Below, piece after piece: positions 30,248-51,631 of a stretch of DNA of 58,985 nucleotides. A program made the translations under genes and the position numbers. The stretch spans positions 1 through 58,985 of the forward strand of contig JBIIUM010000004.1 of NCBI GenBank assembly GCA_044339985.1, written 5' to 3'. The notes beneath the pieces are model-generated. The model did not search any database. It was not told the DNA's origin and was given only the letters and a program-made list of their open reading frames with translations. This stretch comes from Burkholderiales bacterium. GTDB taxonomy: Bacteria > Pseudomonadota > Gammaproteobacteria > Burkholderiales > Ga0077523. Numbering within the stretch: the stretch's first letter is position 1; the number at the start of each line of letters is the position of its first letter.

Positions 30248-30949
30248 CTACATGAAGCTGGCGGCGCCGCAGTTCACGTTGGTCTGGCCGGTGAGGTTCC
30301 ACGCGCCAGCGGCCGTGATGCAGGCCGGCGCTGCGCCCGGAGCGTCGGGAGCAGTTCCACCCTGGGTGAAAACAGAGAACACGAACGAGCCGGAGATTCC
30401 GTTGCCGTCGTCGGTCTTGCGGTCCACCTCCGCAACGATTTCCACCGGGATCTGGCTGCCTGTCTTGAGGCTGTGACGTTCAGCGGCTGTGGCGCCAGTG
30501 GCCACTGCGTAAACATTGTCGTAGGCAAGCCCGAGGTACTGGCCGTACGGGTTCTTGGGGATCACCAAATCGCCGACGGTCGCGTTATACACATAATTGC
30601 CATTGATGAAACCAGACTTGGACAGGTGCTCCCAGACAAGGAAGGGCTCGGTTACGGCTGAATTGCCCGTTCCGGACGATTTGATGACGCCATCGCCGTT
30701 GCCGTTGGTGGTGGCGCCCTGGATGTTCTGCACAGCGCTGGCGTAATCGCCTGGCAGGCCGCGGTAGCGATCCTGAAAGCCGAAGAACGCGGCCTTGATG
30801 CCGTCCTGCTGCTGGATGAGATTGCGCACGCGCGCCGAGGTGATGAGTTCCTGCCCCTTGAGGATGCCGCCGAGCAGCAGCCCGATGATCACCAGCACGA
30901 TGGCGATTTCGATCAGCGTGAAGCCTTTTTGGGGGTTGCGGGGTTTCAT
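30248..30949 (-). CDS. Putative major pilin/pseudopilin with class III signal peptide
   Basis: MKPRNPQKG|FTLIEIAIVLVIIGLLLGG (G-1, F+1, E+5); C-terminal Cys pair; own promoter, RBS (AAGGA) and terminator. Confidence 0.88.
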   Translation of the reverse strand: MKPRNPQKGFTLIEIAIVLVIIGLLLGGILKGQELITSARVRNLIQQQDGIKAAFFGFQDRYRGLPGDYASAVQNIQGATTNGNGDGVIKSSGTGNSAVTEPFLVWEHLSKSGFINGNYVYNATVGDLVIPKNPYGQYLGLAYDNVYAVATGATAAERHSLKTGSQIPVEIVAEVDRKTDDGNGISGSFVFSVFTQGGTAPDAPGAAPACITAAGAWNLTGQTNVNCGAASFM

Positions 30950-30990
30950 GGCAGATTTCCTTGAGTGATACGACTCGCGGATAACCGCAG

Positions 30991-31005
30991 GCTATTTTCG
31001 TGCCA
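30991..31005 (-). promoter_or_regulatory. Sigma54 (-24/-12) promoter of the pilin gene
   Basis: Minus strand TGGCACGAAAATAGC: GG-N10-GC spacing exact, 1 mismatch to TGGCACG-N4-TTGC, 41 nt upstream of the ATG. Confidence 0.8.
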
Positions 31006-31020
31006 GCTGGCCAAAATGAA

Positions 31021-31046
31021 TATTCTTTTGTTTACACAATGACTTA
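31021..31046. promoter_or_regulatory. IHF-like site with A/T tract
   Basis: TATTCTTTTGTTT followed by ACACAATGACTTA (CAA-N4-TTA core of WATCAANNNNTTR), between the promoter and the putative enhancer. Confidence 0.55.
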
Positions 31047-31100
31047 AAAAAATCGCCTGCATCGGCGTAGATGCTTGCCGCCGCGAGCGTTGCACCATTC

Positions 31101-31134
31101 GACGGCGTTTCGACTGTGTTGACGGTTTTTCGGC
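31101..31134. promoter_or_regulatory. Tandem candidate enhancer (UAS) boxes for a sigma54 activator
   Basis: GACGGCGTTTCGAC (31101-31114) and GACGGTTTTTCGGC (31121-31134), 20 bp periodicity, about 120-155 nt upstream of the inferred start site. Confidence 0.55.
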
Positions 31135-31171
31135 GCGCGCCCTGGGGGTATCCGGTGCCGGGGCGGCGGTG

Positions 31172-31915
31172 TCAGGGCGTGTTGCCCGTTGACGGGCGAT
31201 GTAGCTGCAGCCTCTCGAGCCGTTCGGCGAGAAAGCGGATCTCGCTCGGGTCGGTGACCGTGCCGCTGGCCAGCAACCCGCCCAGCAGCACCCGGGCAGC
31301 TTCATACTCGCCCAGATCTTCCCGCAGGAAGATGTGCATCTGCCGGGCCCAACCGGGTACGCCGGGGCCGTGGGCATGGTCGCGCAGCGCGTCGGCGTAG
31401 CGCACCGCCAGCGGCAGGTCCTTCAGGCGATGCTTGGCCATGATGGCGCCGTGGGCCAGCCAGGGCCAGCGGCGCTCGGGGTCTTCCAGGAATTTCTCCA
31501 GGACGAACTCCGCCATGAGGCGCGATTTTTCAGGGAACCCGTACACCTGGCCGTACACATGGGAGGCCATGAGCAGCGGATACTGCCCGGCAGGATCAAG
31601 GCCCAGGATGCGGTCTAGCCATCCGGCTACGCGGGGGTAATCGAGTTCGGCAAAGGGGATGCTCACGCCAGGCTGATTGTCGAAGGCTTGCAGCCACAAC
31701 GTCAGAATCTGGGCGAGGCCGATGGGCTCGCCGAGCGCCGCGACTCGAAGCGCCGCCAGAGCGGGGGGCACCGGCAGATCACCAGCTTGCGCCTTGGGAG
31801 GGGAGCGCTGCCACTGAAAGCCCAGGTGCAGGGCGAGCGCCAGCGCCAGAGCGGCGAGGGTTGCCGCGGGTACGGCAGCCATGGGCCGCTCATCGCGGTG
31901 CTGCCGCGGCTTCAC
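31172..31915 (-). CDS. Membrane-anchored helical (TPR-like) accessory protein, possibly PilG/XapA-like
   Basis: N-terminal TM segment, then LWLQAFDNQPG...LDYPRVAGWLDRILGLDPAGQYPLLMA...WPWLAHGA...PGWAR; GTGA overlap with the permease; alternative start ATG 31882. Confidence 0.65.
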   Translation of the reverse strand: MKPRQHRDERPMAAVPAATLAALALALALHLGFQWQRSPPKAQAGDLPVPPALAALRVAALGEPIGLAQILTLWLQAFDNQPGVSIPFAELDYPRVAGWLDRILGLDPAGQYPLLMASHVYGQVYGFPEKSRLMAEFVLEKFLEDPERRWPWLAHGAIMAKHRLKDLPLAVRYADALRDHAHGPGVPGWARQMHIFLREDLGEYEAARVLLGGLLASGTVTDPSEIRFLAERLERLQLHRPSTGNTP

Positions 31916-32691
31916 TGGTTGCGCCGGTAAAGGTCGAAGCAGGCCGCCGTGAACAGCAGCAGCACGTACACCGCGCTCTGCGCGGCGATCCCGGGCAGTT
32001 CAGCCCAGGGCGCGCCTTCGCCCAGGAGCCACGCCGTGCGGGTGAACCGATCCAGATCGGGCAGTGCCAACTCGACGGTACGTACCGCCACTACTGCGGC
32101 GCGGTGCGTCCAGGAGCCATCGTCCAGCAGCGCCGAACCAGCGATCAGCACCACCGCCGCCATGGTCCGCGAAAGGACGTAGAAGGACAGCACGAAGGCG
32201 GCCGCCAGCATGAGCTGGCTGAACGTGATGACGCAAAACAGCGCCGCCGCCGCCACCAGCAGGCTTTCCAGGCCCAGAGACAGCGCCCAGGCGCACCACG
32301 CACCCGCCGGCGCCACTGCGGCCAGGGGCAACGCCAGCACCGCCGAGGCAGCCAGCGCAACGGCGCCATAGCCCAGCAGCTTTCCGCACAGGTATTGCCC
32401 GCGGGTGATGTCCGCCGCCAGCAGCAGCTCGGTGACTTTGTCCTGGTTTTCGCGCAGCATGCTTGCAAGCACGTGCATGCACACCACGAACACGGCTGCG
32501 AGCCGCACGCCGGCAGCCAGCAATCCGGCCTGGATACGCGCAGCCTCCGTGATGGCAAGACTCCGCGCGAACAGCGCGGCGCCGAACAGCGATAGGGCCA
32601 TGGCCAGCACGATCCAGGGAAGGCGCGTGCGCAGCGCCTCGATCCACGCAAAGGAAGCCACTACGCGAATGCGCTCGACAGCGCTGGACAT
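31912..32691 (-). CDS. ABC-2-type exporter permease (PilI/Xap-like)
   Basis: About six TM segments; EALRTR near the N-terminus, ELLLAADITRGQYLCGKLLG, LPDL and C-terminal FDLYRR motifs. Confidence 0.8.
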   Translation of the reverse strand: MSSAVERIRVVASFAWIEALRTRLPWIVLAMALSLFGAALFARSLAITEAARIQAGLLAAGVRLAAVFVVCMHVLASMLRENQDKVTELLLAADITRGQYLCGKLLGYGAVALAASAVLALPLAAVAPAGAWCAWALSLGLESLLVAAAALFCVITFSQLMLAAAFVLSFYVLSRTMAAVVLIAGSALLDDGSWTHRAAVVAVRTVELALPDLDRFTRTAWLLGEGAPWAELPGIAAQSAVYVLLLFTAACFDLYRRNQ

Positions 32692-32787
32692 CAGGGTTGC
32701 TCGCGGTCAAGGATAGACAGCCGGATGTTAACCGACGCGATCCTGCCCGCGCCCTCACAGCCGCCCCATTGATTCCCGCCGCCCGCC

Positions 32788-34500
32788 ATGCCGCTGCCTT
32801 TTGCCGCTGAATTTCTCTGGCGCCGCCAGAACCTGACCTTCAGCCTGATGCTGGCGGCCCTGCACCTTGCCCTGGCGCTCGAACTGCAGGGTGGCGCACT
32901 CAAGGCGTTCGTGCTCATGCATTTCGGACTGTTTCTTCTCTGGCAACCCATGTGGCAGGGCGGTCGCGATCTGGTGCCGGGCCATGCGGCTGTGCTGGTG
33001 GCGGCGGGTGTTGCCCTGGCCTGGTGGTCCAACGGGTGGTTGCTGGCGTTGTGGATTGCCGTGCTGTTTGCGCTGATCGGCAGCCGCTTGCCGGGTATGC
33101 GCGACGGGCGCCAGCGCGCAGCCTCGTTGCTGGCCGCTTTTTACTTGATGGCGCTGTTGTTTGCTTGGGTGGTTCCCAAGCTTTTCGAAAACGCACAAGG
33201 CTATCCGCCCTTCGCGCTCGACCTGATTCGCTATGGCCTGATCGTGCCGGTGGTGATCATCGCGTGGCTGCCTGCCGAGGCGCGCTCCGAGCCCGCCCGT
33301 CAGGGCATCGACCTGGTGTACAGCCTGCTGCTGTTCCTGCTGATGGTGGTGCTGGTGCTGGGCGCGCTGTTCGTGCAGCGACTGGCGGGGGGGGGCTACG
33401 TGGCAGCGCTTGCCGCCACCGTGCTGGGGGTCGCGGCGATGCTGCTGCTGCTGGCATGGCTTTGGGACCCTCGCGGGGGCTTCGAGGGCATCGGGCAACT
33501 GCTGTCCCGGTACTTCCTGAGCCTGGGGCTGCCGTTCGAGCAGTGGATGCACCGCCTTGCGAGCCTCGCCGAGAGCGAGACCGATCCGGAACGCTTCCTC
33601 AGCAGCGCCTCTCGGGAGATGCTGGGTCTGCCCTGGTTATCGGGTGTTTCCTGGCAGTGCGAACGGGGCAGCGGGGCGGCGGGCGTTGCCAAGGGCGCAG
33701 TGACACGCCTGAACGCCGGGGGTCTGATTCTGGAGATGCACACCCGCGTCAGGCCGAGCCCGGCGTTGCTGATGCATATGCGCCTGCTGGCGCAGTTGCT
33801 GGGCGACTATTACGCCGCAAAGGTGCGAGAGGAGGCGCAACGCAGCAGCGCGTATGTGCAGGCCGTGCACGAAACCGGCGCTCGCCTCACCCACGATGTC
33901 AAGAACCTGTTGCAGTCGCTGCGCTCCCTGTGTTCGGCAGCGCAGTCCGCGGGCGCCCGCGACGACGAGGCGCTGCGGCGGCTGATCCAGCGTCAACTGC
34001 CGCTGATGGCGCAGCGGCTTCAGGTGACCCTGGACAAGATCGAGGCGCGTCCCGCTTCCGGTGAGGAGCGCGATGCACCGGCGGCCGAGTGGTGGCGCGC
34101 CCTGGGGCAGCGCCATGCCCACGAGCGGGTGGATCTGCGCGCCCGAACCCTGCCGGCTTCGGCCCACGTGCCCGCCGATCTGTTCGATCGCGTCGTGGAG
34201 AACCTGCTGCACAACGCCCTGGAGAAGCGCCAGCGGCGCGAGGCTTCGGAGGTGACCGTGGAACTGGCCTGCGAGGGCAATGCCTGCCGCCTGGCGGTAA
34301 GCGATGATGGCGAAGCCGTGCCCCAGTCTTTGGCCAGGCGCCTGTTCGAAGCGCCCGTGCCCTCGGCCAGCGGGCTGGGGGTCGGCTTGTATCAGAGCGC
34401 CCGGTACGCCGCCGAGCGCGGCTACCGCCTGACGCTGGAGCGCAATGTGCGCGGCGACGTGCGCTTCGTGCTGGCGCCGGCCGATTCAGACCCGGGTTGA
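32788..34500 (+). CDS. Polytopic membrane sensor histidine kinase (PrsK-like H-box)
   Basis: About 8 TM segments; H-box LTHDVKNLL, N-box ENLLHNALE, G1 SDDG, G2 GLGVGLYQS. Confidence 0.88.
   Translation: MPLPFAAEFLWRRQNLTFSLMLAALHLALALELQGGALKAFVLMHFGLFLLWQPMWQGGRDLVPGHAAVLVAAGVALAWWSNGWLLALWIAVLFALIGSRLPGMRDGRQRAASLLAAFYLMALLFAWVVPKLFENAQGYPPFALDLIRYGLIVPVVIIAWLPAEARSEPARQGIDLVYSLLLFLLMVVLVLGALFVQRLAGGGYVAALAATVLGVAAMLLLLAWLWDPRGGFEGIGQLLSRYFLSLGLPFEQWMHRLASLAESETDPERFLSSASREMLGLPWLSGVSWQCERGSGAAGVAKGAVTRLNAGGLILEMHTRVRPSPALLMHMRLLAQLLGDYYAAKVREEAQRSSAYVQAVHETGARLTHDVKNLLQSLRSLCSAAQSAGARDDEALRRLIQRQLPLMAQRLQVTLDKIEARPASGEERDAPAAEWWRALGQRHAHERVDLRARTLPASAHVPADLFDRVVENLLHNALEKRQRREASEVTVELACEGNACRLAVSDDGEAVPQSLARRLFEAPVPSASGLGVGLYQSARYAAERGYRLTLERNVRGDVRFVLAPADSDPG
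33387..33395 (+). repeat. G9 homopolymer within the kinase gene
   Basis: ctggc-GGGGGGGGG-ctac, currently in frame (A-G-G-G-Y). Confidence 0.9.
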
Positions 34501-34527
34501 AGATCGGCCAGACGTTACCGCCCGGCG

Positions 34528-35379
34528 TCAGGGCAGGGTGCCCGCCGCGATCATGCGCGCCAGCAGGGTGGAGGGCGAAATCCAAACGATCTGGTCGTCG
34601 AACTGGTCGGACCCCGCGGAGTCCCGGGGGCGGCTGACGAAATACAGTTTTCCCGTGGCGGCGGTGAGGTGATCGCCGGTGTTTTCCCGCTCGTCATCGC
34701 TGAAGCTCGCGGGTGCGGGTCCATTGGGACCAAGCGAGAAGACCACTGCCACGGCGTTACCGTTGGCGAGCGCGTAATTGCCGCTGCCCGTGCAACTGGT
34801 ATCCGCGAAAGCAGCCCGGGCAGAAGCGCAAACGCTCAGGTAGCCGTCGCTACCCGCGATCGATTGCAGCGAAACCTTGCCGGCGGGCAGTGGCGAAACA
34901 CCCGAGATGGCGCCTGTGGTGGTAACCGGATTGGCGATGGCCCCCACGGCGAAGGAAGCATCCACCGAGGAGCGTACCGCGTAGCGGATGCGGTTGGAAT
35001 TGGCGCCAGCACTGTCCACCAGACCAAAGGGATCGGACAGATAGCCCTGAGCGTCCACGCCCGACATCCCCAAAGTTGCCGCGGGCAGAAACCCGGCCTG
35101 AACGCTACAGGGGCCTCCCCCTGTTGGTGCCTCAGCACCGTTGCTCGTTGCGGTGGCCGGGCATGGCAGCCGTGCATTCACGGCGGCGAAGGCAAGCAGC
35201 GCCTCGCGGGCATCCTCGAGCGAGCGCCGGGTTTCGTCCCAGCGGCGCTGCTCCACCTGGGTGGCCAGCGGCACCAGCAGCCCGGCGAGCAGCGTGGCCA
35301 CGATCACCAGGCCAAGAGCCAGTTCGATGAGCGAAAGGCCGCGTTGGCGGCATTGCGAAATCATCGTCAGGGAGGGCAT
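34528..35379 (-). CDS. Minor pilin/pseudopilin with class III signal peptide
   Basis: RQRG|LSLIELALGLVIVATLLAGLLVPL, RLPCPA, FDDQIVWIS; alternative start at 35364. Confidence 0.85.
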   Translation of the reverse strand: MPSLTMISQCRQRGLSLIELALGLVIVATLLAGLLVPLATQVEQRRWDETRRSLEDAREALLAFAAVNARLPCPATATSNGAEAPTGGGPCSVQAGFLPAATLGMSGVDAQGYLSDPFGLVDSAGANSNRIRYAVRSSVDASFAVGAIANPVTTTGAISGVSPLPAGKVSLQSIAGSDGYLSVCASARAAFADTSCTGSGNYALANGNAVAVVFSLGPNGPAPASFSDDERENTGDHLTAATGKLYFVSRPRDSAGSDQFDDQIVWISPSTLLARMIAAGTLP

Positions 35380-36818
35380 GCGGCAGTCACGGGGACCGTC
35401 AGCGAGGCATCGATGCCGCAGACGATGTTGTCGTTGAAGGGCGCCGGGCCAGAACTGGCGAATGCACCGTTGCCAGCCATGGAGGCTTGGGTCCTGTTGG
35501 GTTCCTCGAGGTAGTTTGCCACGTCCTGTACCTCGGTGGTGCCAGGGCGGCGTGACTGACCGGCGAACGGCGGGCCGGCGAACATAACCCCGGCTGCCAT
35601 GGGGGTGCCGTTCACGGTGATGCAGTCGTTGGCGCCGCAACCGCGGCCACCCGCACTGCCGGCGGGGCGGAAGGCATCGCTGAGGGCATAGAACAGCTGG
35701 TCCTTGAAGTTGGCGTACCAGATGTTGGTCTGCGCGGTCCAGTTGGCGCATCTGCCGCCCACGCTGCTGGTACCCAGCAGTCGTAAGGCCGCGTTGCCCG
35801 TCACGCCATTCGAAACCGGCGTCTTGAAGGGGACGCGCCCGGAGAAAGTGTTGTCCGCATCCTGCTGGCTGTCGCTGTTCACGATGTCGGCGGTGATGGG
35901 CGCCGCCCAGGGGAGTCGTTCGTCAGCCGGATCGCTGGGGTACCTCGCGACGCACTCCGCCACCTTCCGGGTGAGGTCGGCGGCCCTGGCCTGAAAAAAG
36001 CGGCTGCGCCAGATGGCTGACCACACCTCCCGGGCGGTGATGACGATCAACTGATCGTTGAACCCCGGCACGGCGGGGCCTTGGACGAAACTGCTGTTGG
36101 CGCCGGCGTCGGGCGCCGTGGTGGCGATCAGCGCATTGTCGATCCCGGCACGGGTATCCAGGTAATTCGAGGCCGCATAGTTGCCGCCGCAGTCGGAAGT
36201 GCCGGTCACGCGGGTCCGGTTCTGACCACCCAGCGCGAGACCAGGTGCGAAGACGATGGCCACGGCACGGTCGTAGCCGTTGTCGGCTGTCAAACGGCTG
36301 GCGCCGTCCGGCCCGAACACGTCCAGCTGGCCGGGTGTATCCCAGTTGAACAGGTCGCGCTGGGTTGTCTGATCGGCGGCCGCGATGAAGTCGTTGGTCT
36401 TGAGGGCGCTGGCTTTGTAGCGCCCCGCCACGGCGTACCACAGGCACTCGCCCGAGGCATCGCGCAGGGTCGGGATGTCCAGCGTGTACCAGGGCAGCCG
36501 TCCAAGGGCATTCACGTTCCGCCCGCGACAGGGAGAATCGGCCGTACCGTCGCGGGTATCGGCGGAGGTGTCCGGACAGGGCAGGAAGCCCGGAAGGTCT
36601 TCGCTGGGGTCGTGGTTCTCCGCGTAGGTCACTGCATAGGCCAGCAGCGCGGCCTTGGCCTGCACCAGCGCTTCGCGGGTGGTGCGATCGCGCGAGGCGG
36701 TGTCTGTGCCAGTGACCCGTGAGGTGAGCAATCCCGCGGTGAACAGCACCGCCAGCAGGCCCGCCATCACCAGCAGGGCGAGCATCAGGGCGCCGCGCTG
36801 CACACGTCGCGAGGCCAT
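35367..36818 (-). CDS. Large PilX/GspK-like minor pilin (no Glu+5), Cys-rich, two-domain
   Basis: MASRRVQRG|ALMLALLVMAGLLAVL, LPCPD, GRLPWYTL, CLWYAV; start at ATG 36818. Confidence 0.8.
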   Translation of the reverse strand: MASRRVQRGALMLALLVMAGLLAVLFTAGLLTSRVTGTDTASRDRTTREALVQAKAALLAYAVTYAENHDPSEDLPGFLPCPDTSADTRDGTADSPCRGRNVNALGRLPWYTLDIPTLRDASGECLWYAVAGRYKASALKTNDFIAAADQTTQRDLFNWDTPGQLDVFGPDGASRLTADNGYDRAVAIVFAPGLALGGQNRTRVTGTSDCGGNYAASNYLDTRAGIDNALIATTAPDAGANSSFVQGPAVPGFNDQLIVITAREVWSAIWRSRFFQARAADLTRKVAECVARYPSDPADERLPWAAPITADIVNSDSQQDADNTFSGRVPFKTPVSNGVTGNAALRLLGTSSVGGRCANWTAQTNIWYANFKDQLFYALSDAFRPAGSAGGRGCGANDCITVNGTPMAAGVMFAGPPFAGQSRRPGTTEVQDVANYLEEPNRTQASMAGNGAFASSGPAPFNDNIVCGIDASLTVPVTAACPP

Positions 36819-36819
36819 T

Positions 36820-37359
36820 TCAGTCGCCCGGTTCAGCAGGTTTTGTGACGGGTGCCGGGGTGGGCGCCGGCGCCGGTGGACGCTGATAGGGTTCGGCCAC
36901 CCGGTTGCTGGACGAATTGACGCTTTGCCCCACCCGCAGCCGCACCCGGCGGCCGTTCTCGCCAAGGCGCAGGTCGGCGCTTTCGTCGGCCAGGCTGCCG
37001 CGGACGACGCCGCGCTCGCCCATGCGCTCGCTGACGGCCTCGTTGTTGATCCACACGGTAGCTTCACCGTCGCTGCGCCGCACGATGCCCTGCAGGGTGT
37101 AGGTGCTGCTCACCGGGGGCGCACTGGCTGCCTCCGCAGGCTTGGCGCGCGTCGCCGGCTTGGTGGATGGGCGCGTGCCCCGGGAGAGCAGGGCACGGCG
37201 GTCTTCGTCCATGGCAGCGCGCTGTTGGGGGGTGTAGAACAGCCTCCCGAGGGCAGGGGGGGCAGGGGCTGCCGCATCGGTATCCGGTGCAGGCTGGGCT
37301 CCCGCCAGGAAGGCTTGCATGGCCAGCAGAATGCCGCCGATCCAGCACCACGGGCTCAT
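36820..37359 (-). CDS. Exported accessory protein of the filament system (MshK/PilP position)
   Basis: Signal peptide, LGRLFYTPQQRAAMD, LQGIVRRSDGEATVWINN, VRLRVGQ; ATGA overlap with the upstream gene. Confidence 0.7.
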   Translation of the reverse strand: MSPWCWIGGILLAMQAFLAGAQPAPDTDAAAPAPPALGRLFYTPQQRAAMDEDRRALLSRGTRPSTKPATRAKPAEAASAPPVSSTYTLQGIVRRSDGEATVWINNEAVSERMGERGVVRGSLADESADLRLGENGRRVRLRVGQSVNSSSNRVAEPYQRPPAPAPTPAPVTKPAEPGD

Positions 37360-39523: not shown

Positions 39524-39531
39524 CGCGGGCG

Positions 39532-40731: not shown

Positions 40732-40777
40732 CGGGTCGGCGGTGTTGCGGCGCCAGTTGCCGCAGGACGGCGCGTGG

Positions 40778-42526: not shown

Positions 42527-43950
42527 TGGGTGCCGTCCTCGAGCGGGGCGAGTTGCCCGATGCGCGCCACGGCAGCCTTCTGGTCGAAGCCAGCGCGGCC
42601 CTGGGAGAGGGACAGTTCCATCGCTTTGCGATAAAACTGCAGGGCGGGCTTTGGCTGGCCGAGGCGATCGAGGCTCACGGCGAGGTTGAAGGCGAAATCA
42701 GGATTGCCCGGCTCGGTCTGGAAGGCCTGGAAGTAGGCTCGCTGCGCCTGTGCCCATTGGGACTGGCTGGCGTGCAGGTTTCCAAGCGTGAAATACAACT
42801 GACCGGACGGTTCGCGGGAGATCATTTCCCGCAACCGGCTTTCCGAGCCTACCGGGTCCGATGAGCCCATCAGGCCGATGATCCCGGAGTGGGCGGCGGC
42901 ATTCTGCGGATCGAGGTCCAACACGCGTCCGTAATACTCGCCCGCTCGTTCGGTGCGCCCCTGCCGCCAGGCAATGGAGGCAAGACCCAACAGGGCGTCG
43001 ATGTTGCGCTGATCCAGGGCCAGCACCGATTCATAGGCCGCCTCTGCCTCGGCGAGCCGCCCTCGCTGGGCGTGCCCCCAGGCCTCCTCGATGCGGGCGA
43101 CGACCCCGCGTGGCAATTCCGTGGGCTGCACCTTGACGCGGTCTTCAACGGGCACTGTGGGTACGTTGCCCGCGGCACGGGTCTTGGGACGCTCCAGCCG
43201 CGCCGGCTCGACGCTGGAATTCTGTTCGCGCGGGGTGGCTTCAGGCCGTTTGCGGGCACCGGGTGCCCGAAGGGTGGGTGCGGGGAGGTTGGAGAGATCG
43301 TCCGCGCTGCTCAAAGACAGTCTGGCGCCAGCGGACGTTTCACCCGGCCCCACCCTGGGCGATGATTCCTCCGCCGCCCTCGGCGTTTTCTGGGCAACAG
43401 CGGGTTCCTGATTGGCCCCAGGAGCAGACGGTGCGGTTTGCGCGGGTGCGGCAGCGGGCAAACCGGGTGGCGGTGCATCGAGGATGTCGGGCATGGGCGC
43501 ACCGGTTTTTGGTACGCCTGGGGACACTGCGGTCCGGACTGCCATGGGCCGGGGCTGGCGATTCTCGTCGTGCGGTGCTCCGGAGAGCATCCCTGGATTG
43601 AATATGGCGATGTACACGTACACCCCATAGCCCAGCATGAAAACCGCCGCCGCACCGAGGAAAAGGGGGACTGGCCGAAGGTTGAAGCCGGACAGCAGGC
43701 GGGGCCGGGGTTCGCGAGCCTCGGCGCCGAGCACTGCAGCGGCTTGCTGAGGAGACGGTTCCGGACCCTCGGCGCCCGTGGAGGTGGCCGACAGGTCGCC
43801 AAAGGCAGGAGCGGATGAGCCTATGAAGGGTTCCGCCGGCTGGATCTCGCCTGGCTCCAGTTCGAGCCCGGAACGAGAAACGTCCGAGTCGGTCTGGACC
43901 GATTCGCGGTTCTTGGCCGCCTTCTGCAGGGCCTGGAGCAGCAGGCTCAT
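42523..43950 (-). CDS. Bitopic TPR protein (MshN-like)
   Basis: MSLLLQALQKA N-terminus, one TM segment, Pro/Ala-rich linker, C-terminal TPRs (ALLGLA, YFTLGNL, FAFNLAVSLD). Confidence 0.82.
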   Translation of the reverse strand: MSLLLQALQKAAKNRESVQTDSDVSRSGLELEPGEIQPAEPFIGSSAPAFGDLSATSTGAEGPEPSPQQAAAVLGAEAREPRPRLLSGFNLRPVPLFLGAAAVFMLGYGVYVYIAIFNPGMLSGAPHDENRQPRPMAVRTAVSPGVPKTGAPMPDILDAPPPGLPAAAPAQTAPSAPGANQEPAVAQKTPRAAEESSPRVGPGETSAGARLSLSSADDLSNLPAPTLRAPGARKRPEATPREQNSSVEPARLERPKTRAAGNVPTVPVEDRVKVQPTELPRGVVARIEEAWGHAQRGRLAEAEAAYESVLALDQRNIDALLGLASIAWRQGRTERAGEYYGRVLDLDPQNAAAHSGIIGLMGSSDPVGSESRLREMISREPSGQLYFTLGNLHASQSQWAQAQRAYFQAFQTEPGNPDFAFNLAVSLDRLGQPKPALQFYRKAMELSLSQGRAGFDQKAAVARIGQLAPLEDGTQ

Positions 43951-43956
43951 GGCGGG

Positions 43957-45870
43957 TCAGCGTGCCCCGGGAGCGTCAAGGGACCCAGCGCCCATCTGCT
44001 CGGTGCGTGGCAGCAGCCGGCGCAGGCCCTTGAGTTCGTCCGAGTCGAGGGACGGGTTGGACACCACCACCGGCCGCAGAAAGATCACCAGCTCGGACTT
44101 GCGCGCCAGTTCATTGCGGTAGGCGAACAGGTCTCCGGCACGGGTGTTGCCCAAACCCGGCACCTGGTTGCGGTTGCGGTCCACCTCGTCCTTGATGAGG
44201 CCGCCGAGGATGGCTGTCTGCCCGCTCACCACCTGCAGAACGGATTCGATCTCTCGAACCTCAACCACGGGGATCTCGTTCTTGAGGTTCCTGTCTGCGA
44301 GGGTTGGGTTGGGGTCTGCGACAACTCCCACCTGGCTGGTGACCGTCGGGCGCACGGTAAGCGTGATTTGGCCGTTATCGTTGATCTGTGGCGTCATGCT
44401 CATCACCAGCCCGATGGGCACCGTGCGCGCGGTGGTGGTGACGTTGGTGGTGGAGCCCGCATTCACAGTGGTCAGGACGGTGGATTGAACGGTGAAGTAC
44501 ACCTGGTTGCGCACCACCTTGAGCAGCGCCGTCTGGTTGTTGAGCGCCATCAACTTGGGGCTGGAGAGTACGCGGGCGTTGCCGAACTGCTCCAGCAGCT
44601 TGAGCGTGGCGAAGATGTTGCCGGCCGCATCCGCGGAATAGCCCACGGTCATGGAGGGTGGGCTGCCCATGGCGCCGGCGGTCATGAGCTGACGGAAGGT
44701 GAAACCCGCCCCCGGGCTTCCGGCCACGCGCCCCCAGTCCACGCCTGCCTGGTATTGACGCGACAACTCCACTTCCACGATGGTGGCTTCGATCAGCACC
44801 TGGCGCTGCACCGACGACATGACGCTGTCCAGGTACTCCCGCACCAGGACGTGCTGGGCCTGGGTAGCCATGACCGTTACGGTCCCGGCCACGGGGTTCA
44901 CCACTACCTCGTTGATCACATCGCCAGGAATGGGCGCCGCCTGCTGGCCGTCGAAAGCGGTGGCGAAGAGGTCCTTGGCATTTTCCCCGGCGCGGGCGAC
45001 AGCTTCTGCCTGAGCGATGCGCTCATCGCGGCGCTGCTTGAGCGCCTCGGCCCGGGCGGCGCGCTCCTCGGAGGATTGTGTCTGGGCCCGCGTGGCCGAC
45101 AGAATCGACTTGACGTTGCCTTCCAGAGTCTTCCAGAAGTCGTTGGTCGAGGTGGTGGTCACCGTGGTGGACGAAGCGTTGGCTGCACCCCCCCCGCCGC
45201 CGCCTCCTCCTCCTCCGCCCCCGCCCCCACCACCCGCGCCGCCGGTTCCGACGGTGGCGATGATGCCCGACACGCCCACGGTGGAGTCGGTATTTCGGAC
45301 GACGTTCACGTAATTGACTCTGTAGGTGCTGATGTAGGGCGTGTCGGCCTGTACCGAAATGGAGCGCCCGTCCTGCTTCCAGCGCAGGTTGGCCTGCCTA
45401 GAAATGCGATCCAGGATGGCGGGCAATGTTTCGTCTATGGCGTTGAGGCTCACGACCCCAGTGATGCCGGGATGGACGTCGATGTTCTGCCTGGTGTCGC
45501 GGGCCAGCGCGAACAGAAGTTCCTTCACGGGTACTTCGTTGACGACCACGCTGTAGGTGGGCAGCGTCGGCTTTGGCCGCGGCGCGGGTGGTGGGGGTAC
45601 GGAAACCGGCGCCGGCACATCCCCGGCGCCGGAGGGCGCCGCTGTAGTGTTGGCTGTGAGATGCCCCTCGGAAACGGGCAGGGAGGGCGCCCGGTAACTG
45701 CAGCCGGCAAGCAAACCCATGCCCAGGGCGATGGCCAAGGTAACCGTGGAGACGGGGATATGACAGGGAAGGAAGGAGGCCCGACCCGCGCCGCCGCTTC
45801 CCGCGGCGCTGCTGCGAACAGGTTGTGCGTGCGCCCCTCGGCGGGCAAGGGCTCGCCTCTCGGCGGGCAT
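43957..45870 (-). CDS. Lipoprotein secretin (MshL/GspD family)
   Basis: Lipobox LAGC, VKELLFALARD, RQVLIEATIVEV, GVDW, LSSPKLMALNNQTA, ILGGL, KSELVIFLRP. Start uncertain (ATG 45927 or 45870). Confidence 0.92.
   Translation of the reverse strand: MPAERRALARRGAHAQPVRSSAAGSGGAGRASFLPCHIPVSTVTLAIALGMGLLAGCSYRAPSLPVSEGHLTANTTAAPSGAGDVPAPVSVPPPPAPRPKPTLPTYSVVVNEVPVKELLFALARDTRQNIDVHPGITGVVSLNAIDETLPAILDRISRQANLRWKQDGRSISVQADTPYISTYRVNYVNVVRNTDSTVGVSGIIATVGTGGAGGGGGGGGGGGGGGGGAANASSTTVTTTSTNDFWKTLEGNVKSILSATRAQTQSSEERAARAEALKQRRDERIAQAEAVARAGENAKDLFATAFDGQQAAPIPGDVINEVVVNPVAGTVTVMATQAQHVLVREYLDSVMSSVQRQVLIEATIVEVELSRQYQAGVDWGRVAGSPGAGFTFRQLMTAGAMGSPPSMTVGYSADAAGNIFATLKLLEQFGNARVLSSPKLMALNNQTALLKVVRNQVYFTVQSTVLTTVNAGSTTNVTTTARTVPIGLVMSMTPQINDNGQITLTVRPTVTSQVGVVADPNPTLADRNLKNEIPVVEVREIESVLQVVSGQTAILGGLIKDEVDRNRNQVPGLGNTRAGDLFAYRNELARKSELVIFLRPVVVSNPSLDSDELKGLRRLLPRTEQMGAGSLDAPGAR
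45187..45234 (-). repeat. Poly-glycine coding tract (about 16 codons) in the secretin
   Basis: Mixed GGT/GGG/GGC/GGA codons, in frame. Confidence 0.9.
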
Positions 45871-45938
45871 TGGTGCGCACCAAAAGGAGGAAGCGCGGGG
45901 CCTTGAGTTGGGAGGGGGCGTGAGCATGGACTAATAAT

Positions 45939-45967
45939 AATATGAGCGGGGTCGAAACGGCTGTAAA
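45939..45967 (-). promoter_or_regulatory. Candidate sigma70 promoter for the secretin-to-minor-pilin operon
   Basis: Minus strand TTTACA-N17-CATATT within an AT-rich patch (TATTATTATTAG). Confidence 0.4.
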
Positions 45968-46152
45968 TACTTGATGCAGCGCGAGACTGCCCATGTCCGT
46001 CGGTCGTGGGCCTGCTGGAGGTTCCGCCCCCCGGGGTGTTGGGAATCGATGCCCGAATGGACCGTTGCCAGACTCACCACTGATGCTAACGGCCGAACGG
46101 CAGCGTACTTGAGAGGGGCATACCCCGGGCATTGCCCGGGAAATGGGGGCGG

Positions 46153-47127
46153 CTACGGAGCCTTGGGCAGCGAAGGCGCTGGAGGCGCCGGCGGCGAGGA
46201 ACTGTTGCTTTGCTGAAACACCCACCAGGCGCTGCCCGCCGCAATCACCATGACGACGGCGATCACGCCGGTTATCCAACCACGAGAAAGCCGCGACCGG
46301 CGTTGCGCTGCCGATGGCTGGTTGAACTCGCTATCCCGAACCGCCACCCGGGCGTGCTCGATCGTCACCGTATGGGTGTTGGCGGCGAAGGCCGCCAGCA
46401 GCGTTTTCTCGGCGATCAGGTTGATTCGGCGGGTGAGCCCGCCGCTGGCGCGGGCGATGAAGGCGACCACCTTGGGAGGGAACAGCGCCGGCCCCCGGTA
46501 GCCGGCGGCATGCAGACGGAAGTTGAGGTACTCGCCGATGTCCGGTTCCGCCAAGGGCGCGAGATTGAAGCTGTGAGTGATGCGTTCCCTGAGTTGGCGG
46601 ATACTGGTTTCGCTCAGGTTTTCGTCCAACTCCGGCTGGCCGAAGAGCACAAGCTGCAACAACTTGTGGCGGTCGGTTTCGAGGTTGGAGAGCAGCCGGA
46701 TTTCCTCCAGGGTGGCAATCGGCATCCCCTGCGATTCTTCCACGAACACCACCACTTGCCGGCCTTCGGAGTGGCGCCGCAACAGGTAATCGTGCAGCGC
46801 GTGCATAACCTCCAGGCGTTTGGCATCGCGTGCCACCGGCAGCTGCAGCTCGAAGGCAATCGCGTGCATGATTTCGTCGGGCGAGACGCTGGGATTGCCA
46901 AGATAGACAATGTCGACGCGCTCGGCGAGCCTTGCCTGCAGCATGCGGCACAGCATGGTCTTGCCGCTGCCCACTTCGCCGGTAACCTTGATGATCCCCT
47001 CGCCGTTGAGGATGGCGTAAACAAGGGCATCCAGAACCGCTCCGCGGTTGGCGCCCTCGAAAAAAAACTCGGTGTCGGGCGTGATCCGGAAGGGTGGGCG
47101 CTTGAGCCCGAAAAAAGCGTAGTACAT
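46153..47127 (-). CDS. ExeA/GspA/MshM-family AAA ATPase with C-terminal TM anchor
   Basis: MYYAFFGLKRPPFRITPD, TGEVGSGKT, VFVEESQ, LFGQPEL, RQLRERI, SGGLTRRIN; start at ATG 47127. Confidence 0.93.
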   Translation of the reverse strand: MYYAFFGLKRPPFRITPDTEFFFEGANRGAVLDALVYAILNGEGIIKVTGEVGSGKTMLCRMLQARLAERVDIVYLGNPSVSPDEIMHAIAFELQLPVARDAKRLEVMHALHDYLLRRHSEGRQVVVFVEESQGMPIATLEEIRLLSNLETDRHKLLQLVLFGQPELDENLSETSIRQLRERITHSFNLAPLAEPDIGEYLNFRLHAAGYRGPALFPPKVVAFIARASGGLTRRINLIAEKTLLAAFAANTHTVTIEHARVAVRDSEFNQPSAAQRRSRLSRGWITGVIAVVMVIAAGSAWWVFQQSNSSSPPAPPAPSLPKAP

Positions 47128-47134
47128 GCGCCCC

Positions 47135-48589
47135 CTACGCCCGCCCGCCGGGGCTGCTGCCCGCCGCGTGGGTGTCGTGGCCCTGAACACGGCCGTAGAG
47201 GGTGGTGCGACGAACGCCAAGCATGCGGGCTGCCTGGCTGAAGTTGCCGTGGCTCATGGCGAGTGCAGCCTCCACGAAGCAGCGTTCCCACTGACGCAGA
47301 GTCTCGTCCAGGTCGAGGTTGTGACGCGTCTCAAGGATTCCGCGGGCCGCCTGCACGCTGGGCTCGAAGCTAAACGCAGGCGTAGCCGTTTCCTCATGGG
47401 ACGGGAGCGAACCCGCGAAATCTAGCTCCGTGGCGAGTTGCTCTCGGCTGACCTTTTGGCCGGAGTGCCGGGTTATCAGCCGTATCACCACGTTACGCAA
47501 TTCACGCACGTTACCGGGGAAGGGATAATCCATCCACAGCGCAAGCGCTTCTGGAGAAAGAACAAATGGCGTTGCGCCTGTCTGGGCCGCATACAGCGCC
47601 GTAAAGTGTTCCAGCAGCAGCTGACGGTCTTGCCCCAGCTCGCGCAGCGGCGCCACCTGAATGGCAAACACGGACAACCGGTGATAGAGGTCAAGGCGGA
47701 AGCGGCCTGCGCGCACCTCCTCCCGCAACCCGCGGTTGGTGGCGGCAATCACCCGGGCTTCGCTGTGCCGCGACTGGGTTTCGCCGACGCGCTGAAACTC
47801 GCCGTTTTCCAGGACACGCAGCAACTTGGCTTGCAGCTCCAGAGGCAGCTCGCCGATCTCGTCAAGGAACAGCGTGCCGTCGCGAGCGTCTTCGAAGTAA
47901 CCGCTGCGGGCTCCGGCGGCGCCGGTGAAAGCCCCCTTGGCGTGGCCGAACAGGGTGGGTTCCACCAGGTTTGCCGAAATGGCGGCGCAGTTCAGGGCGA
48001 GATAGGGTCGTCCAGCACGAAGGCCGAAACGGTGCAGTGCCTCGGCCACCAGTTCCTTCCCGCTACCCGATTCGCCTTCAATGAGCACGGGAAAGGGCGA
48101 ACTGCCGTACAGGGCGATCTGCTCGCGCAGTCGCTCAATAGGGAAGCTCCTGCCCACGATGCCGCTGGTGGCGGCAGGGTCGCGCTTCTCGGCTGCACTG
48201 AAGCCGGAGGCGCGCAGCAGCAACTCCTTGAGGCGCTCGGGCTCGCACGGCTTGGCCACAAAATCCACCGCGCCCAGGGCGCGAGCATGGCGGGCGTTCG
48301 CCTCGTCGTTCTGGCCTGAGAGCACCAGGATTTTCATGTGTGGTGCGGCGCCGAGCAGGTCTCCGATGAGCTTGAAACCCTCGTCGGGGCGGTGCGGCGT
48401 GGGCGGAAGGCCCAGGTCCACCAGCGCGAGGCCGGGCGGCTCGCCGAGTTGCATCAGGAGGCTTTGCACCTGGCCACGGGAATCGGCGGCATAGACGTTG
48501 AAGTCACGACCAAGCACGAAGGACAGGGTATCGGAGATCAGCGGATCGTCATCGACGATCAGCAGGTCGGGCCGGACCTTGGTCTCCAT
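47135..48589 (-). CDS. Sigma54-dependent response regulator (REC-AAA+-Fis HTH; PrsR-like receiver)
   Basis: LLIVDDD, VDLGLPP, KP; GESGSGKE, intact GAFTGA, FLDEIGE, FPGNVREL; HTH NFSQAARMLGVRRTTLY. Confidence 0.94.
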   Translation of the reverse strand: METKVRPDLLIVDDDPLISDTLSFVLGRDFNVYAADSRGQVQSLLMQLGEPPGLALVDLGLPPTPHRPDEGFKLIGDLLGAAPHMKILVLSGQNDEANARHARALGAVDFVAKPCEPERLKELLLRASGFSAAEKRDPAATSGIVGRSFPIERLREQIALYGSSPFPVLIEGESGSGKELVAEALHRFGLRAGRPYLALNCAAISANLVEPTLFGHAKGAFTGAAGARSGYFEDARDGTLFLDEIGELPLELQAKLLRVLENGEFQRVGETQSRHSEARVIAATNRGLREEVRAGRFRLDLYHRLSVFAIQVAPLRELGQDRQLLLEHFTALYAAQTGATPFVLSPEALALWMDYPFPGNVRELRNVVIRLITRHSGQKVSREQLATELDFAGSLPSHEETATPAFSFEPSVQAARGILETRHNLDLDETLRQWERCFVEAALAMSHGNFSQAARMLGVRRTTLYGRVQGHDTHAAGSSPGGRA

Positions 48590-48596
48590 GGAGGAC

Positions 48597-49328
48597 TCAG
48601 GCGGCCCGAGGCTCATCGATCAGCCTCAGGAACGCCTGCTCCAGTGAAGCGTCACCGTGGGAAGCGCGCAATTGGGCGGGCCTGCCCACGTAGCGCAGGT
48701 GGCCGCGGTGCAGCACGGCCATCCGGCTGCACATCTCGTCCACGTCAGCGAGCGCGTGGGAAGTGATGAACACGGTGGCGCCGCCCGCGTGGCGCTCTCG
48801 CAACACTGCTTTGAGCAGCGCCCGGGCCTTGGGATCGAGACCGCTGGTGGGTTCGTCCAGCACAAGCATGGGGCGGCCCGCGAGCAGGGCGCAGGCAAGC
48901 CCAAGTTTTTGCGTCATGCCTTTGGAGAAGGCGCGCACCGGCTTGTCGAGAGCCCCCGCATCGAGGTCAAGGCTGGAGATGGTGGAACGAGCCAGTGCTT
49001 CATCGTACCGTTGTCCGTAGAGCCGCAGCATGAGGCGAAGAAAATCCCTCCCCGTGGCATAGAAGGGGGCATTGAATCGCTCGGGCACGAACGCGATGCT
49101 GGAACGCGCTTCGGTGCGCGTACTCGGGATGCCGAAAAGTTCGATGCGACCCTCTTCAGCGCGGTTGGCGTCGAGCAGACACTTGATCAGCGTGGTCTTG
49201 CCGGCGCCATTCATGCCCACCAAGCCGAAGAAATCTCCCTGATCCACTTCCAGATTCACCTCCGCCAGGGCGGCCAGCGGGCCGAAGCGCTTGGTGACCT
49301 GATCGATGCGAAGGGCGGGTGGCGGCAT
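48597..49328 (-). CDS. ABC exporter ATP-binding protein (PilH/XapD-like)
   Basis: GMNGAGKTT, FSKGMTQKLG, LDEPTSGLDP, SHAL; start at ATG 49328. Confidence 0.9.
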   Translation of the reverse strand: MPPPALRIDQVTKRFGPLAALAEVNLEVDQGDFFGLVGMNGAGKTTLIKCLLDANRAEEGRIELFGIPSTRTEARSSIAFVPERFNAPFYATGRDFLRLMLRLYGQRYDEALARSTISSLDLDAGALDKPVRAFSKGMTQKLGLACALLAGRPMLVLDEPTSGLDPKARALLKAVLRERHAGGATVFITSHALADVDEMCSRMAVLHRGHLRYVGRPAQLRASHGDASLEQAFLRLIDEPRAA

Positions 49329-49498
49329 TCGGAAGGAGGACCTGAAGCCTCGGAGTGCCCGCTTGGCGAAACGCCGCGGAACCCGGCAACGGTAACGGAA
49401 TCGAAAGGTTGCCTCAAGCACGGCCTCATCCGAGAGGCATTCGCTCGGGGCCAGCGGGTTACAATCTGCGCCTTTTTTCGAACCCTGCAGGCTGCCCT

Positions 49499-51099: not shown

Positions 51100-51103
51100 A
51101 CAC

Positions 51104-51577: not shown

Positions 51578-51631
51578 GCCCACCGCCCGCGGTCGCCGTG
51601 CCGGCGCCCGGGCTTTTGCTGGAGAACAGCC

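Follow-up and report, generated by a model that had tools for sequence, protein, structure and literature searches.

A candidate adhesive pilus locus of a distinct MSH-related lineage, with a predicted sigma54 switch and an ABC-2 transporter module, in a Burkholderiales bacterium

Overview of the locus

What kind of machine is encoded between positions 30248 and 49328 of contig JBIIUM010000004.1, and does it belong to one of the type IV filament systems that are already known? The window (the whole 58,985-nucleotide (nt) stretch of DNA that was analysed, forward strand) comes from assembly GCA_044339985.1 of a Burkholderiales bacterium (GTDB lineage Pseudomonadota; Gammaproteobacteria; Burkholderiales). 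An initial annotation, made without database searches, had described this interval as a self-contained hybrid system in which a machine resembling the mannose-sensitive haemagglutinin (MSHA) pilus is joined by an ATP-binding cassette (ABC) exporter and a dedicated sigma54 two-component pair, and had proposed it as a distinct type IV filament subclass. Based on open reading frames (ORFs), their translations and matches to Pfam and NCBIfam, the interval contains 16 genes (here named P1 to P16), 15 on the minus strand and one, encoding the kinase P13, on the plus strand; coordinates of P1 to P16 given below refer to the minus strand unless stated otherwise. Every gene of the earlier list was recovered in its place, but the list itself amounts to 16 genes and not to the 15 that it gave.

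We consider it reasonably probable that these genes encode a cyclic di-GMP (c-di-GMP)-gated, sigma54-controlled adhesive pilus, built by a type IV filament machine that has a secretin and belongs to a distinct and widespread MSH-related lineage, here called type B.

Phylogenetic position of the machine

Homologues of all five gene kinds that MacSyFinder treats as mandatory for MSH (mshA/E/G/L/M) are present in the locus, where they are recognized from Pfam and NCBIfam homologues alone. In the scheme of Denise et al. (2019; PMC6668835), whose main text counts 191 systems as MSH and 884 as generic and does not name Betaproteobacteria, MSH is defined by these genes in a single locus without a peptidase. 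The MshL model scored above its cut-off in 146/400 genomes of the class. When 20 regions around the best MshL matches were fetched, 18 showed the gene order I1-I2-J-K-L-M-N-E-G-F followed by pilins (type A), which we take to be the order of Vibrio cholerae MSHA, and two showed the order of the window (type B).

The secretin of the window, P4 (43957..45927), is a lipoprotein with the lipobox LLAGC and an uncertain start codon (Secretin, 115.5 bits; Secretin_N_2, 33.6 bits). Against NCBIfam it scores 237.4 bits with MshL (TIGR02519; cut-off 250.2), 126.4 bits with GspD (cut-off 351.35) and 95.9 bits with PilQ (cut-off 284.35). Among 25 type B relatives, 11 secretins lie above the MshL cut-off, 13 score 209-249 bits and one was unmatched at 1e-50, while no other secretin family was matched at E ≤ 1e-50; as judged by these scores, type B secretins are probably MshL-type. 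The secretin gene is flanked by those for P3 (46153..47127), an ExeA/MshM-like AAA+ ATPase with a C-terminal membrane segment (residues 286-304; AAA_22, 93.9 bits), and P5 (42523..43950), a membrane-anchored, MshN-like tetratricopeptide repeat (TPR) protein with a hydrophobic segment at residues 94-118 and matches to the TPR families of Pfam. The sole NCBIfam match of P3 is the ExeA-like TIGR03015 (212 bits; cut-off 324.5), and the protein shows 35-44% identity to MshM of canonical-order loci; P5 aligns with MshN of such loci at an hhalign probability of 98.9.

The extension ATPase P6 (40778..42526) carries an N-terminal MshEN c-di-GMP-binding domain (T2SSE, 395 bits; MshEN, 53.7 bits) and remains below the NCBIfam cut-offs of both PilB (498.7 bits; cut-off 675.65) and GspE (493.3 bits; cut-off 630.25). 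Its identity is 33-38% to type A ATPases, 37-44% to GspE and 33-35% to PilB, compared with 56-61% to the type B ATPases found in other orders and in other classes (50-51% in three outlying regions). With the solved N-domain of V. cholerae MshE (5htl), P6 scored 61.8 bits, whereas 108 bits were obtained for a type A ATPase. A tree of 53 ATPases was built with PilT as the outgroup; it included eight GspE and six PilB sequences, assigned by NCBIfam cut-offs, and the PilB of the genome itself, and supports are given as ultrafast bootstrap (UFBoot)/Shimodaira-Hasegawa-like approximate likelihood ratio test (SH-aLRT). Type B ATPases formed a clade with support 97/89 that was recovered as a single clade in 100% of 200 bootstrap trees, and the type A, GspE and PilB clades were each supported at 100/100. 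With the root on PilT, type B branches first, followed by type A, GspE and then TfpB, the ATPase encoded on contig C93 of the genome (see below) and PilB. P6 lies outside the type A, GspE and PilB clades; nesting of the core within a characterized clade of MSHA or of type II secretion systems (T2SS), the outcome that the initial annotation had named as speaking against its proposal, was not observed.

The inner-membrane platform protein P7 (39532..40731), of the GspF/PilC family (T2SSF, 174.2 bits in two stretches; GspF, 309.6 bits against a cut-off of 424), gave the same division, with the split between types A and B supported at 99; this tree was drawn without an outgroup because the platform paralogues of the genome itself were missed by tblastn at 1e-8. 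With both the ATPase (97/89) and the platform (99) in clades separate from those of canonical-order MSH, a distinct subclass is supported. The MSHA-like character that had been read from the secretin, AAA+, TPR, ATPase and platform genes holds as well, given the probably MshL-type secretins, the match between P5 and MshN and the MshEN domain on P6; V. cholerae MSHA and the MSH class at large have, next to the MshL secretin that P4 resembles, the same ExeA-like MshM, TPR protein MshN, MshEN-bearing ATPase and GspF-type platform. On the sequence evidence, type B is MSH-related in its secretin, MshM, MshN and MshE-type ATPase, yet constitutes a separate, paralogous lineage. None of the core proteins reaches an equivalog cut-off, with the exception of the MshE-related c-di-GMP motif domain NF053729 on P6, and six proteins (P8-P11, P14 and P15) have no Pfam or NCBIfam family above threshold.

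Distribution and conservation of gene order

P8 (37964..39523) was taken as the marker of the locus because it belongs to no known family. It was found in 21/25 genomes of the family, in 228/401 sampled genomes of the order (92/167 genera) and, using a P8 profile at E ≤ 1e-10, in 52/300 genomes of a class sample and 41/201 genomes of a phylum sample, 38 of the latter in other classes. P8 alone as the query for related loci returned a single relative, at 91%. These tallies take in seven genomes flagged as unpublished, none of whose loci was analysed; one of them also enters one count on the sigma54 and ABC-module data. That similar clusters would exist in other Betaproteobacteria had been predicted, and the matches across the order bear this out.

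The 16 window proteins were then compared (tblastn, E ≤ 1e-4) with 60 stretches of approximately 20 kb, each surrounding a P8 homologue from the order. Two of these were halves and were dropped; the 58 regions that remained represent 26 families. Among them the exact order 1-12, 13 reversed, 14-16 is found again and, as the same order is found in dozens of genomes, its conservation is far above chance. P3-P12 form an invariant core. The accessory genes vary: P1 was found in 34 regions, P2 in 49, P13 in 34, P14 in 32 and P15 in 31 (in all 31 alongside P14), and all five occur together in 26/58 regions and 12/26 families. Five regions have kept the regulator and kinase genes and lack the ABC genes, four have kept the ABC genes and lack the two-component genes, and in four others neither set was matched in the same tblastn search.

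Outside the order, P13 and P14 are both present in 10/20 type B regions, with P1 found once, after the pilin gene. In other classes, a contiguous P14-P15-P16-P1 block is present in 4/8 regions and P14-P15-P16 in one more, and there was no P2 or P13 match in these eight regions. The ABC block thus extends to classes in which P2 and P13 were not matched, for which reason the ABC module appears to have accompanied the machine for longer than the two-component pair, which seems to have been added within the class. The ABC and two-component genes accordingly co-occur with the core well beyond the window, both inside and outside the order, and the ABC genes do so in other classes too. The gene order also looks like a cyclic permutation when classes are compared: four regions of other classes (L227, L228, L229 and L233) have 4-12, 14, 15, 16, 1 (then 3), against 1, 2, 3-12, 13, 14-16 in the order studied here, where the ABC ATPase gene therefore lies 12 genes from that of its permease.

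Could the locus nevertheless be an ordinary MSHA locus of shuffled order, orthologous to that of Vibrio, with the ABC and two-component genes as incidental neighbours? A probably MshL-type secretin and the MshM-, MshN-, MshE- and MshG-like genes are all there, and as in MSHA there is a single locus with neither a prepilin peptidase nor PilT, the absence of the peptidase being part of the MSH definition in PMC6668835. Genome papers also label such clusters MSH. MSH-homologous clusters with "significant gene rearrangement" relative to Vibrio and Pseudoalteromonas are described in Sideroxydans ES-1 and Gallionella ES-2 (Emerson et al. 2013; PMC3770913), which are likewise Betaproteobacteria, and an "MSHA pilin cluster" is named in Gallionellaceae metagenome-assembled genomes (2023; PMC10734482). 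Both are annotation-level descriptions ("data not shown") of clusters that may or may not be type B, and their passages on the clusters mention no ABC module, two-component pair, sigma54 promoter or separate clade.

Several observations make this explanation unlikely. First, types A and B coexist in the same genomes and are adjacent in three of them, so that they must be paralogues and not one system. Second, the identity of P6 to type A ATPases is no higher than that to GspE or PilB. Third, the proteins of type A loci retain recognizable PilM_2 (38.7 bits) and PilN (28.4 bits) domains, whereas P8, P9 and P10 match nothing, and in type B the PilM and PilN functions appear to be united in one divergent GspL-like protein. 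Fourth, the window has the order M-L-N-E-G-P8-P9-P10 and not I-J-K-L-M-N-E-G-F, and it has three pilin-like genes compared with the seven pilins of V. cholerae MSHA. Fifth, the linkage with the ABC and two-component genes spans three taxonomic ranks and is missing from 18/18 type A regions: no P1, P8, P13, P14 or P15 match was found in any of them, although three contain a weakly P2-like gene (34-36% identity). The statement that canonical MSHA loci lack an ABC exporter and a two-component system of their own is upheld by the same regions (0/18 with a P1, P13, P14 or P15 match). Finally, in a 91-genome sample of the order (the window's own genome apart), P15 occurs only alongside P8 in 31/32 genomes, the exception being a genome that is 68% complete; in several genomes the two are on different contigs. 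The adjacency of types A and B may itself reflect an old duplication in tandem, or co-location that arose repeatedly.

Predicted transcriptional and c-di-GMP control

P2 (47135..48616) is a sigma54-dependent response regulator with a receiver domain, an AAA+ domain and a Fis-type helix-turn-helix (Response_reg, 53.3 bits; Sigma54_activat, 208.8 bits; HTH_8, 37.2 bits); among NCBIfam models it scores 332 bits with NtrC and 328 bits with PrsR, each below its cut-off. P13 (32788..34500, plus strand) is a histidine kinase (HATPase_c, 41.4 bits; best NCBIfam match PrsK, 51 bits against a cut-off of 300) in which hydropathy places approximately 7-8 membrane segments within the first 225 residues, with no large periplasmic loop. 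Upstream of the major pilin gene P16 (30248..30949), at 30991..31005 and 56 nt from its start, is a sigma54-type -24/-12 promoter element, TGGCACGAAAATAGC, with one mismatch to TGGCAC-N5-TTGC. All three features expected of PilS-PilR-type control were found, namely a receiver-bearing sigma54 activator, a kinase embedded in the membrane and, ahead of the major pilin gene, a -24/-12 promoter.

Loci with a recognizable P16 were then surveyed for the element, taken as GG-N10-GC with no more than two mismatches and at a distance of 39-79 nt upstream. All loci with P2 have it (26/26) and none of those without P2 (0/4), against a background rate of 0.056 per 150 nt; it is also present in one of the two half regions (L093), the regulator region of which lies outside the fetched stretch. 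Based on these results, the arrangement of P13, P2 and the P16 promoter resembles the PilS-PilR system that acts on pilA (PMC6058289), a likeness in manner of working and not one of membership. Another sigma54-like site, upstream of P1 (49673-49659, two mismatches), was discarded because it lies inside an mlaF-like reading frame. A scan of the locus for sigma70 promoters and terminators gave sites no more numerous than in shuffled sequence.

The N-domain of P6 scores 65.1 bits with NF053729, well above the cut-off of 38. With the motif text of PMC5013675, a strict 24-residue MshEN motif is found at residues 22-45 and, after a 5-residue spacer, a relaxed one at residues 51-74. MSHA is gated by c-di-GMP through MshE (PMC4624765, PMC7096442), and P6 may respond in the same way.

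Inner-membrane assembly proteins

P8 is predicted to be a bitopic assembly protein. None of 33 members of its family has a significant Pfam match (GspL_C appears in 1/33, at E 0.016), and its named relatives in a large protein collection are all "hypothetical protein", with zero Pfam domains. When the families of P8 and P15 were used as profiles against PDB sequences, nothing significant was matched, and the ESM Atlas returned only "hypothetical protein" clusters, which hinted weakly at PilM_2 for P8 and at TPR for P15. The AlphaFold model of P8 (mean predicted local distance difference test (pLDDT) 85.1) consists of an alpha/beta domain (residues 1-285) with the actin-like fold of PilM and GspL, a long helix (residues 295-359) that includes the sole membrane segment, and a periplasmic alpha/beta domain (residues 368-512). 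In Foldseek searches the closest structure is PilM (2ych_A, E 4.4e-13, with Pseudomonas aeruginosa PilM close to it), followed by FtsA and then by the cytoplasmic domain of EpsL/GspL (1yf5, E 5.4e-9), which was matched also in its complex with GspE (4pht_Y). Against MshI1 and MshI2 the hhalign matches are weak but collinear (probabilities 48.5 and 69.7, respectively). From the fold matches and this collinear profile match, P8 is modelled as a GspL-like fusion of PilM and PilN. The earlier label "GspL-like" thus finds no backing in sequence families and holds at the level of the fold.

In other classes there are approximately 35 matches that extend over no more than the first ~300 positions of the profile of P8 and lie within open frames of 772-999 amino acids (aa). 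The one that was checked (L228:6238-9072, plus strand) encodes 944 aa with a P8-like N-domain followed by MshEN (residues 431-518) and T2SSE (residues 545-930). The existence of this natural fusion speaks for binding of the ATPase by the N-domain of P8. Fused second ATPases of this type sit beside the normal one in type B-like loci of another class.

The two genes that follow P8 are assigned by position. P9 (37356..37967) is a bitopic protein with a hydrophobic segment at residues 10-28; position and topology, together with its conserved place next to P8, make it a candidate for the PilO/GspM role. P10 (36820..37359) is a small exported protein, with a signal peptide and the motif LGRLFFTPEQR conserved in its homologues, at the position of PilP/MshK. 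No Pfam or NCBIfam matches were obtained for P8, P9, P10 or P11, and P15 belongs to no family. Across families, P10 homologues have in common the motif LGRLFFTPEQRA-LD directly after the signal peptide; we know of no family with this motif.

Pilins

P16, the major pilin, is predicted to be separately transcribed and is 233 aa in length (N_methyl, 33.9 bits). It has a 9-residue leader, glycine at -1, phenylalanine at +1 and glutamate at +5, and two C-terminal cysteines at residues 210 and 227; the first 40 residues of the mature protein are near-identical across families in the alignment. P12 (34528..35364) is a minor pilin with a prepilin cleavage and methylation motif and Glu5 (N_methyl, 21.7 bits), and its hhalign match to the minor pilins of type A loci extends over the N-terminus only. 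P11 (35367..36818) is a large pilin-like protein with a hydrophobic segment of the pilin kind at residues 10-28. Its relatives are 296-1057 aa in length and lack Glu5 in the alignment, which fits a tip subunit or adhesin.

One alternative is a type II secretion-like machine, in which P16, P12 and P11 would form a short pseudopilus that pushes one or more exoproteins through the secretin and the ABC exporter would supply or modify the substrate. P8 has the architecture and the cytoplasmic fold of GspL (1yf5, 4pht_Y) and, like GspL, presumably holds the ATPase; an ExeA-like ATPase and a secretin lipoprotein are encoded in the locus; P11 lacks Glu5, as does GspK; there is no retraction ATPase in the locus; and GspE and GspF are among the top NCBIfam matches of P6 and P7. 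However, the scores with GspE, GspF and GspD are all below their cut-offs, the ATPase is outside the GspE clade (100/100), and the secretin is probably MshL-type. No match to GspC, GspI-K or GspM was found, and GspG and GspH match only the N-terminal 22-25 residues of the pilins (27 and 22 bits, against cut-offs of 80 and 89). Furthermore, the major pilin is large, has a cysteine pair that would form a disulfide, and is preceded by a strong sigma54 promoter of its own, as in abundant structural pilins, and the locus has no conserved candidate substrate gene. We therefore regard a secretion machine as improbable. The 233-aa pilin with its cysteine pair and near-invariant N-terminus, and the variable length of P11, point to a pilus and not a pseudopilus, and an adhesive, surface-attachment pilus is the most likely product.

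ABC transporter module

P1 (48597..49328), the first gene of the long operon, encodes an ABC transporter ATPase of the DrrA/ABC-2 type (ABC_tran, 80.6 bits; best NCBIfam match drrA, 151.8 bits, below cut-off). P14 (31912..32691) is predicted to be an ABC-2 type permease with approximately six membrane segments (ABC2_membrane_3, 28.8 bits, a weak match below the cut-off of 31.6). P15 (31172..31915), the GTG start of which at 31915 overlaps the P14 stop, is a 247-aa membrane-anchored protein with TPR-like helical repeats. The P15 family includes at least 3666 clusters with a mean column identity of 60%; the best 120 are nameless or "hypothetical" and none of these has a Pfam domain. Among the organisms named for P15 relatives are Ampullimonas aquatilis and Noviherbaspirillum. 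Its model (pLDDT 87.2) is an all-helical, membrane-anchored repeat for which Foldseek finds only generic TPR folds, at E 2e-3 or weaker; a kinship to the type IV pilus (T4P) factor PilW (2vq2, E 0.014) was considered and set aside as too weak. P14 and P15 are predicted, with weak support, to form a complex. The score was 0.52 (best of three controls, 0.00), where the score mark was reached by 58/80 solved complexes and 2/110 mismatched pairs, and where at scores of 0.60 or less only 7/80 solved complexes passed, together with both of the passing mismatches; the runs agreed in at least 88% of contacts, with partner pLDDT of at least 73.

A similar grouping is known from Myxococcus xanthus, in which the type IVa pilus (T4aP) loci contain pilS/pilR and the ABC genes pilGHI (PMC6060248, PMC3724824) and PilGHI is required for T4P (PMC3724824). 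In both, a sigma54 pair, a major pilin gene and genes for an ABC ATPase, a permease and a third protein are clustered with the genes of the machine. Geobacter has a like arrangement, with xapD located near pilS (PMC5585712). The description of the locus as a hybrid therefore overstated the novelty of its parts. The machines differ: that of Myxococcus is a T4aP (PilB/T/C/M/N/O/P/Q), whereas P6 falls well short of the PilB cut-off, Pfam finds no PilM_2, PilN, PilO or PilP in the window, the PilQ score of P4 is far below its cut-off, and PilT-like genes are on other contigs only. The distance of 12 genes between ABC ATPase and permease in the order studied is a further difference.

That the filament serves chiefly another role (DNA uptake, aggregation or floc formation with exopolymers, or extracellular electron transfer), with the ABC-2 transporter exporting a partner polymer, is the least probable of the alternatives: in Geobacter, xapD (GSU1501), an ABC ATPase gene near pilS/pilC, is called a sugar ABC transporter required to grow on electrodes (PMC5585712), the best sub-threshold NCBIfam matches of P2, P13 and P3 are proteins of PEP-CTERM/exopolysaccharide systems and the carriers seen are freshwater and sediment-type bacteria, but those matches are far below their cut-offs, Pfam identifies no glycosyltransferase or polysaccharide synthesis gene in the locus and competence genes are not linked to it. 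A PEP-CTERM/exosortase link, hinted at by PrsR, PrsK and TIGR03015, was likewise dropped on account of these scores.

Proposed mechanism

The adhesive pilus that we favour would work as follows. P13 would phosphorylate P2, which would fire the -24/-12 promoter of P16 in the manner of PilS-PilR. The prepilins would be cut by the single prepilin peptidase of the genome, which is encoded elsewhere. P6, activated by c-di-GMP at its MshEN domain, would dock both on P8, at its cytoplasmic domain, and on the platform P7 and would power the polymerization of P16, with P12 and the large, Glu5-less P11 priming it at the tip. The filament would leave the cell through the probably MshL-type secretin P4, the assembly of which may be aided by the ExeA-like P3 and the TPR protein P5. 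The ABC-2 transporter P1/P14/P15 may be a dedicated accessory. Its task might be to handle inner-membrane pilin, if PilGHI of Myxococcus is a guide, or to export a surface polymer associated with the pilus. As P14 was found in only 32/58 regions, the module is not essential to the core. Retraction, if any, would rely on a PilT encoded elsewhere.

Absence of PilT and prepilin peptidase from the window, as first reported, was confirmed; in the genome, Peptidase_A24 matches are on contig C228 only, and PilT-like ATPases are on C14, C16 and C204. Because the sole prepilin peptidase is encoded outside the locus, the system is not self-contained, contrary to the initial annotation.

A number of points weigh against the adhesive pilus and its separate lineage. 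In the ATPase tree the supports between clades are modest (83-92 SH-aLRT) and the root is on the long PilT branch. A clade of types A and B together, although not recovered, was not rejected (delta log-likelihood 3.9; approximately unbiased test, p 0.158), which would also suit an ordinary MSHA locus, and the type A, GspE and PilB references were set by gene order and NCBIfam cut-offs and not by named experimental systems. The match between P9 and MshJ is not significant in hhalign and that between P10 and MshK has a probability of 16, so these comparisons tie neither protein to PilO/PilP or MshJ/MshK. There are only three pilin-like genes, fewer than in MSHA, T4aP or T2SS, and the bitopic GspL-like protein, the ExeA-like ATPase and the large pilin-like protein without Glu5 fit a T2SS-like pseudopilus as well. 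The second MshEN motif fits the relaxed pattern only, and a tandem motif was found by regular expressions in 22/36 type B ATPases. The ABC module is missing from many loci, and its likeness to PilH/PilI/PilG is drawn from make-up and position. More generally, every functional step is deduced from members known by sequence, fold and comparison.

RNA libraries give a hint of expression. DNA matches to the stretch come from lake-water metagenomes. Short contigs at least 99% alike, from three RNA libraries of two studies, lie on P16, P14, P13, P8, P7, P6, P4, P2 and P1, but they show neither strand nor level, may reflect DNA carry-over and are not proof of transcription. P16 is covered by contigs in three runs, and a fourth library contains relatives at 95-99%. 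Parts of the locus with no such contig are uninformative on expression, and the glycine run in P4 (described below) was skipped as a repeat.

A further-reaching proposal, which we regard as possible but rather doubtful, is that type B is a fourth major secretin-bearing type IV filament lineage, ranking with T4aP, T2SS and MSH and ancestral to several Pseudomonadota classes, in which the ABC-2 transporter and P15 are an integral, energy-coupled part in a role that no characterized filament needs. If so, the P15-bearing transporter might, for example, extract or proof-read pilin in the inner membrane or export a filament-borne lipid or glycan, and the block of permease, P15, pilin and ATPase genes, together with the fixed Mla/Lpt site described below, would reflect an old role in envelope biogenesis.

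No description of, or experimental work on, the type B subclass was found in the literature, in a search of open-access papers that is not proof of absence. Over half of the genomes sampled in the order have type B, as do between one sixth and one fifth of those sampled in the class and phylum, and the nearest public relatives of P8 and P15 that were checked are nameless or "hypothetical". Judging from names in the sources, the order includes nitrifiers, iron oxidizers and bacteria of wastewater and lakes; type B is probably a main c-di-GMP-controlled attachment organelle of environmentally important Betaproteobacteria. Tools that class every MshL/MshE pair as "MSH" would treat as one a pair of paralogous machines that occur together in a single cell. 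The locus also raises the questions of what use an ABC transporter is to a pilus, whether pilin is sensed by the membrane kinase as in PilS, and whether the GspL-like fusion is ancestral to separate PilM and PilN or derived from them.

Genomic context and other observations

The junctions from P1 to P12 are tight, with overlaps or gaps of less than 50 nt, save for a gap of 225 nt before P4. P12 and P13 are convergent, P13 and P14 are divergent, and a gap of 222 nt lies ahead of P16. The housekeeping flanks reported for the locus were found: KefB-like, lptC/A/B, rpoN, hprK and rapZ genes border one end, and the other is bordered by mlaFEDCB, a second ABC-2 pair, murA and hisD. In 10/10 genomes checked, from eight families, the locus occupies the identical site between mlaF and kefB-unnamed ORF-lptCAB(-rpoN). 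Because this site is fixed, the locus is considered to have been retained in the chromosome by vertical descent since early on, and not to be a mobile island.

Two blocks of envelope-biogenesis genes are separated by the locus: mla (mlaFEDCB, 49355-52569) and lpt-rpoN (lptB/A/C, 24631-26568; rpoN, 23024-24553), which are direct neighbours in E. coli. The sigma54 gene rpoN is thus 6 kb from the sigma54-dependent pilin gene P16. A gene for a PAS-PAS-GGDEF diguanylate cyclase (15623-17824, plus strand; GGDEF, 161 bits) lies 12 kb from the locus with the c-di-GMP-sensing ATPase gene.

The host genome (3.59 Mb in 336 contigs, 99% complete) encodes its true PilB on contig C72 (717 bits, NCBIfam) and two further secretins elsewhere. 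A TfpB-type pilus ATPase is encoded on contig C247 (27307-29082; 905.6 bits, above the cut-off of 850). The 611-aa GspE/PilB-family ATPase of contig C93 (3134-4969) reaches no equivalog cut-off and forms a long branch. Extension-type ATPases thus total four in this 3.6-Mb genome.

In the N-terminal half of P4, between the N-terminal domains, is a run of approximately 18 glycines (window positions ~45180-45241). Two of the relatives (regions L048 and L047, of genomes G201 and G159) show irregularities in core genes: in one the type B ATPase gene was recovered as two tblastn pieces in different frames, and in the other a stop codon lies within the secretin reference. Either may be due to a frameshift, a pseudogene or an assembly error.

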